Sequence record: CP054387.1
Reading direction: 5' to 3' (one strand)
Length of the DNA stretch: 64,000 bases
Source of the DNA: Escherichia phage CMS-2020a
The position numbers are program-made. Shown here one piece after another: positions 18,001-24,000 of this stretch. The stretch's first letter is position 1; each line of letters opens with the position of its first letter.

Positions 18001-21000
18001 ATTCAATCAATCCATTCTAACTTAAAGTATGGTAGGGAGTACTATTAAATCTTATATCATAATTGAACTTATCTATATCATATCTGAGTTAGTTTTGTTA
18101 CATGTTATTAGTCGTTTTTCTCCATTAATGAATGCTGATTGGTTAATATTTGTGCCTGTAGAAAAAATGATTATATCTTTACAACCCTAACCTTTGATGT
18201 AATATCGGTAAGCACTTACCAGAGAGTTTAACGCGCAAAGGTCGCAATAATGTCTGACAAAAACATTGAATTTATAGAAAGTCGCTATGCTGCTTTTATC
18301 GCAGGGCTGATTGAATCCTCACCTATGAGTCAGGCCCAAATAGCCAGACTTATTGGTTATAAAAATGCCAACAACCTTTCTTTAATTAAAAGTGGTAAAA
18401 TTCCTTTGCCTATCGATAAGGTTCGTCCGCTGGCGTTGGCGCTGGGTATTGAGCCAAGTCGTCTTATGATGATGGTGCTGGAAGAACGCCAACCTGAACT
18501 CGCAGCATTTTTATACAAAGAAGGCACCGCTCCTCTTAACGAGGACGAAAAACAGGTTCTTGCTGCATATAACGAGCGATTCGGTAAAGAGAAAGGCGCA
18601 TCACAAAAGGTTGTTGAGGCCATAAAGTCTCTATGAAAAATTTAGACGAATAAGCTCTGTTGATAGACGATCTCCCTTGAATTTGTGGTCAATTTCGTCT
18701 AAATCCGGTTGCTCTACGATTGATGCGATGTACGTTGAGAAACTTTCTAAGGCGTCTCGCATCTCGTCCATATAATCGTGCCGGTCGTAGACCCGATCTA
18801 TCCCCTCAAGACTGTGGTTCATTATTTTGCGTGATACCTCCTGGCTTATACCTAATGCTGGGAAGTAACTACGCGCAGTACGACGCAAATCTCGAGGTGT
18901 AAATGGCGCAAGCTCCATCAGTTCTGGTCGTTCCAGAATACGACGTAATGCCTGGGCTATTGCCACTTTAGACATAGGAAGGTCTTTCCCGATTTTTTTA
19001 TTCGAAGGCACGAGCCACTGGCTGTCTTTACCGTATTCGAACAACTCTTCAATGCATGTGCGCATTAATGTGCTTAAAGGCAGCGAATGCTCACGTGCTG
19101 ACTTGTTTCTCTTGCCTTGATTCCAAACTCCACGCTTAAGATTGAACTCACTTTTTTTAGCCCTCAGTACTTCGTCAGGTCGTCTTGCTGATACAAGACA
19201 CAGCCTGGCCGCCCATTTTGTACCAGCGCACACATTGAAGTAGTCCCATATATTCCAGAACACCCATACCTCTGCGTCGGTCAGCTTCCGCTCGCGAGGT
19301 GTGGGCTTTGCGCCACCGGCAACTTTGTTTAGTGACATATCGTTTAACGGTGACACGTCTATCATCCCTTGGAAGGCGCACCAGCTAAGGAACTGCTTCA
19401 TCAGAGAGAAAACGCGGCGGCCCATAACAATTTTGCCATCCAATATTAGAGGGTTGACCAGTTGGTTAACCATGAACCTATTAATGTCACTTACTTTTAC
19501 ATCAGCAATGTGCGGCAAAACATGTATCAAAATACAATGAACAGCGATCTCTGGCCGACGTCTGGTTATCAGCAGAGATAAGCGAGTGAATAACATGAAT
19601 GCGTCCGAGAATATCATGTTATTGTTGATCTGTGAGATCATAATGGCCTGCATTTGAGATGCTCTTTCGAGATACTCAATTGCCTCTTTTGAGGTGTTTT
19701 CTGCTGCGCGTGCTCTGTCAAAGCTATTTTTCATTTATTGGCATTCACCTAGTTACGCTGATCACCTGTATAAGTAACCAGTATATTAGGCATTGATTCT
19801 TTTGGAATCAAGCTAAAATCTTTCATGCGGAAAATGATTCCATACCTAAAGAGTATGGAATCATTTTTTTCTGTAGAGCTAGTTTTAAATATTTGATTCG
19901 ATATGAAGCCAGGCAATTTCATGCCTGGCTGTTACTTTGTGTTAGGTTGGGTTGTTGATGCTAATGGTAAGTGTTTCGATAGCAAGATCATGAGTTTGGT
20001 TGTTTGTTATATCTGTTAAAACAAAAGCCTCATCACCAAGAGCAATATTGTCTTTAACCAGCTTGAATTTACTCCCCGCCTTGCCATCGAGAACGGGAAT
20101 TACAGTTCCTGTGCCTTTCTCATATTGCAACTCAAGAGTGTGCCAATTGTTGTCGTAGTCACCATATGAGTCTATCTGAACATTTCGATTATTGCCTGTC
20201 CTGTGCATCATAATGTTCAACTTGCCTCCAATTGTTTGAAGGAAGAAGTTAGCCAGAAACAGGCTCCCAGTACCGTCGAATGATATATCGTCAGCAACAG
20301 GTTTACTGGTTTTGTAATATATACCAAAGCCAAACTTAGCTTTTTTTGGATCAGGGTTTCCAGATAATTTAAACTTACAAAGTAATTTACCTCCATTCTC
20401 AAGAAGAGTCTGTGCTATGTCAGTAGCTTTACTGATCGTCCAAGTTTCGTTGGAAACCGCTTTAGTTAAAGCAATTGCTTTTCCGTTTTCAACTGACTGA
20501 ATATTTGCACCAGTTACAGTCCATCCTTGTTCAGTAGCGACATCACCACCAGCTCCAGTTAAGGAAATAACCGTTCGCGGGGTTGGAGTTGTGACAATGT
20601 TGTCATTTTTAGGTTGAGTAGGTTGTTCTTGTTTAATAATCTCACCTGTAACGCCATTCACAAAAGCAGATGATTTCGCTGAATGTGCAAGCAGCGCAGT
20701 TGCGAGACGATCAGATATTATTCCGCGTCGCTGCCATGAACCAAAATGACTCTCTCTACTCTCGGAAGTCCATGTTTTATTATCCTTGCGATGACCGGAA
20801 CCATAATAGCCAATAGATGTGATGTCTGGATCATCTGTAGGGCTATTGGTTAATACGTTATTATCATTCTCATCTTTCATGAATGGAACGAAATAAATTG
20901 CTTGTGAGGTTTTTCCCTTATAACCACCATAAACAATTTCGTACTGTTTTGGATATTTGTTTTTCCACCAGTGGGTCGTATCGCCACAAATCCAGGGTAC

Positions 21001-24000
21001 ATTTGCAGCACTTCCGAAAACACATTGTGCGTCGTATTGAGATAGCTCTTTTCTGAAACCTTCGACCATCTTGAGGAACAGTTCGTTATGCTGCGAGTAC
21101 TTGCCAGTTGCCAAATCAGCTTCGCCTTGCATCCAGACAACACCAAGAAATACATTCTTTTTGTTTTTACTTAAGGCCGCTTTTGTTCTGGCTACAATAT
21201 CCTTATACAAAGGAGTATTTAATCCCCATTTTAAAGATGATTCGATTGCACCTGACTCTTCATAATATTGGCCTTCAGAGCCTGTAACAGTGAAACCAGA
21301 ACCACCTCTTCCGCAAGGAACGAGCAAAATACCTGCGTTTGCTGGAATGAATGGTAATAGTTTTTTGCCAATGTGTAGTCCCTGACCAACACATCCATAT
21401 TCAGAGTCGTTTGCTTTTGGATGCTTGAATTTAGTCATGTCTTGTACATCATGAAGACAGTGATCAGCGGGAATTATTTCATTGTACTTACAGGCAAAAC
21501 CACCTGGTTTAATATTGCTGCGTCGAGCTAACTGTTTTACGCGAGGATGTGGCCGATCAAAAGTTTTTGGCATAGGCAGTCCTTCGCCGTATGACATTGA
21601 GTTGGATTGACCTGCGATAGTAACTACATAATAATAGTCAGGCTCTTCATCTTCATTTGATACCGGTGTGGGCAATTGTGATAAATCACCAGATCGCACA
21701 ATTGCTTGATTGTACGCATTTGGTCCGCCCTTACTTGGTTCAACAATGTTTGGTGACTCGAAAGGTTGCCAACCCTCTGCGATTTTCTCCGCAAGTTTTT
21801 CTCTAAGCTCTTTGCTTGATGATGCTGACAAAATATCATAGTCAATGAATGACATAATCGTTACTCCTTTAACGATAAACTTTAGCTAAAATCGTATCGA
21901 TTTTAGCAGTTAAAAAACGACAATAAAATATAAGAGTAATGTATGAAAGAACAATAAAAATTGCGTAAATGGATATGTGTAAAATATGTGGAATTTCACA
22001 CACAGCGTTGAGCGGTCTGGTTTATGTTAGCGGAGTCTTAATCGAGTTGATTAAAAGGCCAAACCGCTCAACGCTGTGTCTGGCGGAGAGTAATGGAATC
22101 GAACCATCATCGCTTGCGCAATGGGACGGTTTTCAAGACCGCTTGAGCACCATGCTCCCTACTCTCCAGTCGTTGTGGTTACCGGTACTGATCTCCGGCT
22201 TAGCGACCCCGGCTACTGACTGCATTGCAGTGTGTGAACTCGCCTCGTGTGTCGCTGGGGCATTTCTTTCCGCGCATCAGTCTGCGCATCAACCACAACG
22301 GAAAGAGCATTCACGTCTCGCGTGCCACCACGAATGGCAACTCAGAGAGTCGAACTCTGAAAATGTTCTTACCTGTTGTGCGCTCCGTTTCGTGGAGCTA
22401 ACGGCGGGTGAACAGGCCGCACCAGGTTGGACATATTTCAGCGTTATGCTGTTGCAAGAGAGCCAAATTGTGATGGTCGGCGCTGATCTCCGACACAGGG
22501 TTGTAGCAAGCCCCGCAAAGCGCGCACTACTGTAGTTGCGGCACATCAGCCTGTGCATTCACCACAATGTTGAGAACACTGGTTGTCACGCGGCAACGCA
22601 ACATTTATTCATAGATTGGGATATGACCCCGTTACGCCAATGTTCTCAATATTATGTTGGTGCCGATTAACGGGATCGAACCGATGACCATTCGCTTACA
22701 AAGCGACTGCTCTACCAACTGAGCTAAATCGGCAATTTGGTGGGGAGTGATGGAGTCGAACCACCCGAGTCGCAATGACAGTAGATTTACAGTCTACCCC
22801 GCTACCTCTACGGACTAACTCCCCTAAATTGGCGATGGTGGGTGGATTCGAACCACCGACCAGTTGGTTAACAGCCAACTGCTCTACCGCTGAGCTACAC
22901 CATCAATTCAGCACTGACAGTATTTATTACTCAACAGTGCCAATCGCGGCGGTGTTAGTTTCTGCCAGGAAACGCACCGCTACTTGCACTCTTCGTTAGT
23001 GCCAGACGCTTTCGACTTCGCTCAATAGAAGGCTAAATCTTTAAGTAGATGATGTTTCTGAGGACAGCACCTACTTTGTAATTTATACAATGTAATGTAT
23101 GGAATCATTTGTTGTGAAAACAGACACCAATGGCAACAGTGGTTAAACCTACACAACAATCCTGTCTTCACAACGTTGAGGCCACCACTCCGATTGAATG
23201 TTTGCCCAACATGTTACATATCAACGCTCGCCGGTATCTCTGTGAATAGAACCTTAGAATTGATAAAAATGTAATGGCCTCAACGTTGTGTGCTGGCTAA
23301 CCATACCAGCCGGGCTACGTCGCCGCTTTTTAACCCAGTATAAACGACATAATTGAACAAAATGACGTAACAGAATGGGCGGTCAGTGGCTAAGAATCCG
23401 GGAGTCATATGGAGTTGAAAATATACCGACCGCCCATTCTGTTACTTCATCGGAGGGAACACTCATGTTCCCTCCTGCGTTCTGCAATCACACTCGCTCA
23501 GTGTGTCCCATTTCGGTAACGAGGCTGGAAACTGACCTCGCTGGTGTTTGGCTTATTAGGCTACTGCCAGATAGACTTCTTCGTTTGCACTTGTATTTAA
23601 GTTCAAACAGTCGCGTCTCAACGAAAACAAAGTCATCTTATACATAGAAAATAAGTAAGTAAACACTTATTATTGTGTTTTTATTCGGTTGTGACTTTTT
23701 TGATCAAGGCCACTCTACGACTAGGTGTTCTTGTGATGGTGGCAGTGAATCGTTTCGCTTGGATAGTAATGGTTTCGTTCTCCTTAAGTTGCCCGTAGCG
23801 AGTTTCCACCAAGGTGCCAAGACGCCACAGACCATCATCGATACGTTTATGACTAGCAAATTTAATCAGCAACAGTTTTACGACTAACTGACCTACGTAA
23901 AAGGCGAATGCGACTCCGGCCGCTAAGAAATAGGTGACCAACCACCAGTCCCAAGAAGTTAAATTGCTCATTTTCTAACCTTTGTTTCATGAACTACCCG

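Follow-up and report, generated by a model that had tools for sequence, protein, structure and literature searches.

A predicted NanS-p-type sialate O-acetylesterase carried as rare cargo by SSU5-type phage-plasmids

Introduction

What is a large esterase gene doing beside the tRNA cluster of a phage-plasmid? The question is raised by sequence record CP054387.1 (Escherichia phage CMS-2020a), of which we analysed a stretch of 64,000 nucleotides, called the window below and numbered from its first letter. An earlier note on this DNA had read the gene at 19942-21855 as an SGNH-type esterase whose GQSN block is followed by a beta-rich domain at the C-terminus and which lies outside the structural module, and had proposed a surface polysaccharide as its substrate. 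We find that the gene encodes, as judged from sequence and predicted fold, an intact three-domain sialate O-acetylesterase of the NanS-p type, and that it is rare accessory cargo in a defined variable slot of an SSU5/pHCM2-type phage-plasmid.

Research on NanS-p has so far treated it as a hallmark among the accessory genes of Stx and other lambdoid prophages; present there in multiple copies, it lets enterohaemorrhagic Escherichia coli grow on the O-acetylated sialic acids of mucus. What we say of NanS and NanS-p from the literature is taken from reviews and from the structure paper on PvSAE.

Domain architecture of the esterase

The gene occupies 19942..21855 on the minus strand and forms one open reading frame from ATG to stop; its translation is 637 amino acids long (about 70 kDa). 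Three domains follow one another in this single chain: DUF1737 (residues 1-57; 21685..21855, minus strand), a NanS/SASA catalytic domain (residues 73-392; 20680..21639, minus strand) and a lectin-like jelly-roll, DUF6645 (residues 441-637; 19945..20535, minus strand). In Pfam all three exceed the curated cut-offs, with DUF1737 (PF08410) recognised at residues 6-54 (E=1.4e-6, 28.5 bits, cut-off 24), SASA (PF03629) at residues 80-285 (E=3.6e-11, 43.6 bits, cut-off 24.8) and DUF6645 at residues 485-600 (E=4.5e-15). Residues 1-636 cover the full length of the PHROGs profile phrog_143 (634 positions, E=2.9e-270), which carries no function label in that database. Since this value is joined by E=6e-116 to a solved structure, described below, we judge the matches to be far beyond chance. 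By these profile and structure searches, the protein is an intact NanS-p-type three-domain sialate O-acetylesterase, and the SGNH-type (SASA) assignment of the earlier note holds.

No NCBIfam model matches the protein, which is why its RefSeq name is still 'DUF6645 domain-containing protein'; GenBank record CP022461.1 already labels the gene '9-O-acetyl-N-acetylneuraminic acid deacetylase'. A search for a signal peptide found no hydrophobic N-terminal segment, the maximum Kyte-Doolittle value over 15 residues being 0.33 within the first 60. The AlphaFold2 (AF2) model of the protein has a mean predicted local distance difference test score (pLDDT) of 70.5. Because the underlying alignment is shallow (23 close sequences), confidence is only moderate and the active-site loops are badly modelled; the model was used for domain-level fold matching only.

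Active site

In a search of solved structures, residues 67-389 match the E. coli esterase NanS/YjhS (PDB 3pt5) with E=6e-116. The same structure is among the top Foldseek matches of the AF2 model (E=1.3e-29, template modelling (TM) score 0.84 when normalised to the target), a match of fold that does not extend to active-site geometry, as pLDDT lies below 50 at residues 84-99. The active-site residues come from the alignment to NanS, with their codons verified in the DNA.

NanS itself has a catalytic Ser19 and His301, an oxyanion hole formed by Gln18 and a glycine, and no canonical Asp; the roles of Ser19 and His301 were established by mutagenesis (PMC9063846, PMC10017367). Our protein contains the motif IAGQSNSMSYG, in which the GQSN block announced by the earlier note was confirmed codon by codon as G82-Q83-S84-N85 and aligns with 'agqsn' of 3pt5. 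The predicted nucleophile is Ser84 (codon 21604-21606) and the predicted base His370 (codon 20746-20748), while Gln83 and Gly184, the glycine of block II, align with the oxyanion hole. Block III reads QGEAD (Q243-G244-E245-A-D247, residues 243-247), and block V, R367-E-S-H370 (RESH), aligns with RSSH of NanS in an RxSH motif. Ser84, His370, Gln83, Gly184, GQSN, QGEAD and R367 are invariant across 23 aligned family members. Going by this alignment, the catalytic machinery of NanS is complete in the 637-residue protein (Ser84, His370, Gln83 and Gly184).

The earlier note had named the absence of an SGNH triad on an alignment as a refutation. The Ser-His pair is present and the canonical Asp is absent, just as in NanS itself; reading a missing triad as a refutation is misleading here, because NanS works with Ser-His and without the canonical Asp (PMC9063846). 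NanS and the window protein thus share the fold, the Ser, His, Gln and Gly residues and the lack of the SGNH Asp, with RESH in one and RSSH in the other. They differ in that NanS is single-domain, chromosomal and periplasmic, with a signal peptide, whereas the window protein adds DUF1737 and the lectin-like domain, is borne on a phage-plasmid and has no signal peptide.

C-terminal domain

The last 200 residues are predicted by the AF2 model to consist entirely of beta strands, which bears out the earlier description of a beta-rich C-terminal domain. Residues 441-634 match the NanS-p C-terminal domain of phage phi24B (PDB 6yp6) with E=5e-26 and, in Foldseek, a TM score of 0.88. The Foldseek matches that follow 6yp6 are lectin-type jelly-rolls, including sialic-acid and ganglioside-binding domains. 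Four sugar-binding positions have been proposed in phi24B (Y510, Y515, Y540 and F611); they correspond here to F508, Y513, F538 and L606, so that three of the four are aromatic, and leucine at the fourth is the majority state in the family. Taken together, these matches make the domain a putative carbohydrate-binding module that probably binds carbohydrate.

Divergence from lambdoid NanS-p and selection

Phage records with a homologue number 350, all of them Stx or other lambdoid phages and each less than 60 % identical to the window protein. Overall identity to lambdoid NanS-p is 46-50 %, unevenly spread over the chain. In the catalytic domain it reaches 64 % with the Sakai/933W type and 60 % with that of phage JLK-2012 (range 60-65 % for lambdoid proteins), and 55 % with NanS. 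The corresponding values for the Sakai/933W type and JLK-2012 are 34 % and 44 % in DUF1737, and 31 % and 42 % in the C-terminal domain; NanS has no match to either domain. A neighbour-joining tree built from the catalytic domain, with NanS as its root, makes the window protein and one close relative (P0002, 89 % identical) the sister group of all sampled lambdoid NanS-p. This relative sits in the same slot of another SSU5-type element, beside genes for a recombinase, a helix-turn-helix (HTH) protein, CobT, AAA and DNA polymerase III alpha.

Comparison of the window gene with the 89 % relative gives ratios of non-synonymous to synonymous substitution (dN/dS) of 0.065 in DUF1737, 0.042 in the catalytic domain and 0.086 in the C-terminal domain, with 0.078 overall at dS 0.73. 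In DUF1737 there are 13 synonymous and 4 non-synonymous changes (Fisher p about 2e-6). Since dN/dS is low at such a dS between two phage-plasmid copies, all three domains are maintained by purifying selection within phage-plasmids. A recent transfer from a lambdoid phage was considered and rejected: the flanks are unrelated, and the coding sequences align just in the catalytic region, at about 67 % nucleotide identity.

The likeness to the NanS-p of lambdoid phages (933W L0105/z1466, phi24B vb_24B_21/gp84, VT2-Sakai orf42) is nevertheless extensive. They have the same DUF1737-SASA-DUF6645 plan over about 610-660 residues, the same variant SGNH blocks (GQSN, G, QGExD and RxSH) and, like the window protein, no signal peptide; both genes lie directly downstream of a phage tRNA cluster. 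The lambdoid genes belong to a prophage's late operon, where they have Q/stx on one side and the lysis genes on the other, whereas the window gene has its own leader and lies in a recombinase/tRNA-Ser slot of an extrachromosomal siphovirus phage-plasmid of the SSU5 type. This late-operon context is the sole typical feature of NanS-p without a match here, and it is typical rather than defining.

Carrier element and cargo slot

Head, tail and lysis modules are all present in the window, beside genes for partition and replication: it encodes CobT/AAA proteins, DNA polymerase III alpha, a ligase, a primase, a helicase, ParA, an endolysin-like protein and a siphovirus structural module. At the level of DNA it matches phage-plasmids of the SSU5/pHCM2 type, for example Escherichia phage Cyrano (= pLF82), and the window is an element of this type. 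Members of the SSU5 supergroup (pHCM2, pLF82/Cyrano, p09EL50, pWPMR2 and carriers of blaCTX-M-15 such as pECOH89) share its backbone and likewise hold accessory genes in variable slots (preprint 10.1101/2025.09.12.675607). The esterase region is 100 % identical to Shigella sonnei plasmids of about 108 kb; with p09EL50, from E. coli O104:H4 2009EL-2050, its identity is 99.8 %. A plasmid that shares 99 % nucleotide identity with p09EL50 was described in an outbreak strain of STEC (Shiga toxin-producing E. coli) O117:H7 (PMC6113874), and SSU5-group elements are prominent in extensively drug-resistant (XDR) S. sonnei (preprint 10.1101/2025.09.12.675607).

A recombinase gene and tRNA-Ser bound the variable slot in which the gene lies. 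Leftward, homology to Cyrano ends at about 19866, the outer edge of a 15-bp inverted repeat; rightward it resumes at about 21995, just 3' of tRNA-Ser. In Cyrano/pLF82 the same slot holds a glutaredoxin gene and two hypothetical genes. Among 515 PLSDB plasmids that share the recombinase region, backbone homology stops at the same inverted-repeat edge in 508, including Klebsiella plasmids at about 73 % identity, and only 8 carry the esterase gene. Complete E. coli genomes give a similar picture, with the gene in 4 of 212 matching genomes and in each case on a plasmid. The gene has 40.9 % GC, compared with 45.2 % in the whole window. From the slot boundaries, these counts and the lower GC content, the esterase gene is rare accessory cargo in a defined variable slot. 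Its place beside the tRNA cluster and outside the structural module, as stated in the earlier note, is also borne out: four tRNA genes lie at 22081-22904 on the same strand, and the genes for head, tail and tail fibres are remote from it, at about 36-63 kb.

Cargo reported so far for SSU5-type elements consists of antimicrobial-resistance genes and of defence or anti-defence systems. None of the papers searched on p09EL50, pWPMR2 and SSU5-group phage-plasmids speaks of a sialate esterase.

Control region and gene ends

A strong Shine-Dalgarno sequence, AAAGGAG, sits 7 nt before the esterase ATG. It belongs to a 5' region (21856..21950, minus strand) that also contains a TATATT box resembling a -10 element and a perfect 10-bp palindrome, GCTAAAATCG-ATA-CGATTTTAGC, at 21885-21907. 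About 95 nt upstream of the gene are conserved in a diverged copy of the locus (L005, that of the 89 % relative), and the sequence farther upstream is unrelated. Because the leader is conserved between the two copies and the sequence beyond it is not, the gene appears to travel with its own control region, for which a promoter function can be proposed.

Two candidate elements in this region were rejected. The palindrome was considered as a conserved operator or RNA hairpin; L005 keeps the ATCG...CGAT core only, without compensatory changes, and in a 98.4 % identical variant (L007) the 3-nt loop is inverted (TAT). A candidate promoter read by eye, TTGTTC-16-TATATT, is weak.

At the other end, a 9-bp GC-rich hairpin (19907..19930, minus strand) begins 12 nt past the stop codon and is a probable weak terminator; at its position the L005 copy has a canonical hairpin followed by a T-run. 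A search for known RNA families around the gene found the four tRNAs alone.

Proposed role in the use of mucus sialic acids

From the architecture, active-site residues, selection and genomic context described above, we infer a substrate, a release route and a fitness benefit. In our reading, which we regard as probable, a NanS-p-type esterase is carried as cargo of the phage-plasmid and acts on O-acetylated sialic acids of host mucin, either after release by lysis or on virions. The esterase would be synthesised in the cytoplasm and would leave it when an induced phage-plasmid lyses a sub-population of cells, or by carriage on the released virions. Outside the cell, the jelly-roll domain would target the enzyme to sialoglycans, and the catalytic domain would strip 7/8/9-O-acetyl groups from free or mucin-bound sialic acids. 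Sialidases of the microbiota, and surviving siblings through their NanT/NanA pathway, would thereby gain access to N-acetylneuraminic acid (Neu5Ac), and the S. sonnei or E. coli carrier would benefit in gut mucus, both in nutrition and in colonisation.

The substrate is suggested by the characterised homologues. NanS is needed for growth of E. coli on Neu5,9Ac2 (9-O-acetylated Neu5Ac), and the substrates demonstrated for NanS and NanS-p are sialic acids of the animal host that carry O-acetyl groups, both free and bound to mucin (PMC8065619, PMC8319020, PMC10017367). Seven NanS-p homologues from EDL933 and five from O104:H4 have been assayed, and 12 of 12 were active Neu5,9Ac2 esterases that support growth on Neu5,9Ac2 and de-O-acetylate mucin glycans (PMC8065619, PMC8319020); by analogy, the window protein probably has esterase activity on O-acetylated sialic acid. 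The carriers are human gut pathogens, namely S. sonnei, E. coli O104:H4 and STEC O117:H7 (PMC6113874), which fits the proposed setting. Release by lysis is compatible with the endolysin-like gene and the full virion module of the element.

Several points weigh on the other side. Lysis as the release route is deduced from the missing signal peptide. A catalytic-domain identity of 55-65 % does not guarantee an identical substrate range, and the C-terminal domain is just 31-42 % identical to characterised ones, with one of the four proposed binding residues differing. As for expression, the arms of the leader palindrome match at only 7 of 10 positions in L005, and a consensus scan of 21856-22080 gave no strong sigma-70 promoter.

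DUF1737 and the question of a virion component

The alternative that survives best gives the protein a place on the virion; the earlier note had likewise thought of a virion-associated enzyme, and a homologue lends this indirect support. In phi24B, the NanS-p gp84 decorates the capsid, forming a hexamer through DUF1737 on the central hexons and then undergoing proteolytic processing; this was shown by cryo-electron microscopy and proteomics, and a Tyr42 'tooth' inserts between helices of the major capsid protein (preprint 10.64898/2026.04.10.717836). By the same logic, DUF1737 hexamers of the window protein would dock on the hexons of its own capsid and display the esterase and lectin domains, so that the particle would bind or process sialoglycans of mucus, possibly with later cleavage of the domains. 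Such an arrangement is compatible with the nutrient role, and both could co-exist. We consider it unlikely, on the following balance of evidence.

The three-domain plan is that of gp84. DUF1737 is modelled as one helix and an antiparallel sheet (E3-11, H14-26, E30-38, E47-55), and its invariant Gly56 aligns with phi24B Gly54, the last ordered residue of gp84. The domain is under strong purifying selection in phage-plasmids, as its dN/dS given above attests. NanS-p genes are also found in phages whose head proteins fall into three families, and each family goes with a DUF1737 variant of its own; this may reflect capsid-specific adaptation, and it fits simple divergence equally well.

Several points speak against it. 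The position of Tyr42 corresponds to Lys42 or to a gap, and the anchor loop is not conserved; the loop of the window protein, EPSKGGPNAY, is 5 residues longer than in most homologues, and there is a tyrosine at position 48. The major head protein of the window (306 aa, phrog_212) has no detectable similarity to that of Sakai/phi24B (BLASTP E=0.35), and among 281 phages with a related head protein none is lambdoid or Stx. The SSP motif, the proposed processing site found in both linkers of phi24B, is absent from both linkers here. PTP occurs in both (LPTPV at 61-65 and TPTPR at 423-427), and was rejected as a conserved processing motif, the 89 % relative having LTPSV and TPTTR instead. The presence of the gene in so few related plasmids means that it encodes no core structural protein. 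Finally, the gene has its own leader and lies far from the head genes, and a custom hidden Markov model run against all six-frame open reading frames found no stand-alone or second DUF1737 protein in the window.

A bolder form of the idea, which we hold more doubtful still, is that DUF1737 has been re-tuned to dock on a capsid of the SSU5 type, an unrelated one. Esterases with this domain would then serve various temperate phage families as a portable, plug-in decoration, with which their virions would bind and edit mucus sialoglycans. On the phage-plasmids of the epidemic XDR S. sonnei lineage and of O104:H4 and O117:H7 STEC, such an esterase would help mucosal colonisation or the persistence of phage in mucus. 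The gene is a natural test case for DUF1737 as a capsid-specific docking module.

Surface polysaccharides and passive carriage

The earlier note had proposed that the enzyme deacetylates bacterial surface polysaccharide (O-antigen or capsule), as a receptor modification that aids adsorption or as lysogenic conversion. SGNH and SASA esterases can indeed act on many acetylated glycans, and virion association, as for the homologue gp84, would place the enzyme where a receptor modifier belongs. One review raises deacetylation of O-antigen by NanS-p, aiding adsorption, only as a possibility (PMC8065619), and O-acetylation is found in capsules of sialic acid such as K1 (PMC8319020), which could in principle give a sialate esterase a polymer of bacteria to act on. 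We nonetheless find this substrate very improbable and found no specific support for it: the catalytic domain is 55-65 % identical to NanS and NanS-p, whose demonstrated substrates are sialic acids, and every characterised relative (NanS and 12 NanS-p) acts on O-acetylated sialic acids. The known carriers, S. sonnei, O104:H4 and O117:H7, are not known to make surface polymers of sialic acid. Lysogenic conversion is hard to reconcile with a protein that has neither signal peptide nor membrane anchor and so cannot reach the surface of the lysogen itself. The gene also lies outside the tail/tail-fibre module, the usual home of receptor-modifying depolymerases and esterases, and phi24B gp84 is located on the faces of the capsid, not on the tail.

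That the gene is a passive hitch-hiker, the functionless remnant of a recombination with a lambdoid phage at a shared tRNA module, would agree with its rarity, its lower GC content and its position beside a tRNA module common to P1 and lambdoid phages, but is excluded for practical purposes by the selection on it between two phage-plasmid sublineages that hold it in the same slot, and is further opposed by an open reading frame intact over its full length, a conserved leader and flanks without similarity to lambdoid ones, so that no recent transfer is evident.

Significance of the locus

The preferred reading, an esterase acting on mucus sialic acids, rests on a protein class and fold that are known already, and we expect its biochemistry to be ordinary. 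The novelty is a distinct clade on a new type of carrier, that is, a NanS-p lineage that is deep and has been maintained separately, on an extrachromosomal phage-plasmid moving between pathogenic E. coli and S. sonnei. The interest of the locus lies in this carrier, in its epidemiological setting and in the test of capsid docking that DUF1737 offers. Should the enzyme be active, an element that is at present considered cryptic would carry a candidate colonisation factor, and a mucus-foraging enzyme would join the classes of cargo described for phage-plasmids of the SSU5 type.

Features flanking the slot

On the left, the slot is flanked by a tyrosine recombinase (integrase) gene at 18631..19734 on the minus strand (Pfam Phage_integrase, phrog_1). 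An HTH/XRE-type regulator gene at 18250-18636 on the plus strand converges on it with a 6-bp 3' overlap, an arrangement kept in hundreds of related plasmids. A perfect inverted repeat at 19831..19867, with arms of 15 bp and a spacer of 7 nt, forms the left edge itself; it lies about 100 bp upstream of the recombinase gene. Its core is ATGATTCCATAC-N7-GTATGGAATCAT, present in a single copy in the window; Cyrano and L005 keep the arms and differ in the spacer. The repeat could serve recombination, as a lox/dif-like site, or be an operator of the recombinase gene or a terminator.

On the right, the tRNA cluster (Asn, Tyr, Thr and Ser; 22081..22904, minus strand) starts 225 bp upstream of the esterase gene. 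Its tRNA-Tyr is missing in Cyrano. The tRNA-Ser(TGA) at 22084-22168 has tRNA-Sec as its best Rfam match, at 44.6 bits against a gathering threshold of 47, and is called tRNA-Ser with a long variable arm by ARAGORN; it is almost certainly an ordinary class II tRNA-Ser. Abutting its 3' end, an inverted repeat at 21997-22082 (24-nt arms, 92 % complementary, and a 38-nt loop) is kept in Cyrano and closes the slot on its right side; termination of the tRNA transcript or its processing may be the role of this structure.

Between tRNA-Thr and tRNA-Ser is inserted a 291-bp segment (22359-22649) that is 92.8 % identical to the upl/plp region of P1. The tRNA-Asn/tRNA-Thr module occurs elsewhere, beside tciABC in P1 and in the order Q, tRNAs, tciAB, nanS-p in the lambdoid phage JLK-2012. 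It looks like a mosaic junction common to three temperate phage families.

Farther to the left, an AAA-ATPase (CobS/MoxR-like, 411 aa) and a CobT/VWA protein (702 aa) are encoded at 14250-17689, adjoining the DNA polymerase III alpha gene at 10551-14069. The CobT/VWA protein has a long acidic linker rich in Ser, Asp and Glu at about residues 220-400, and the AAA/CobT pair is kept in SSU5-type elements.

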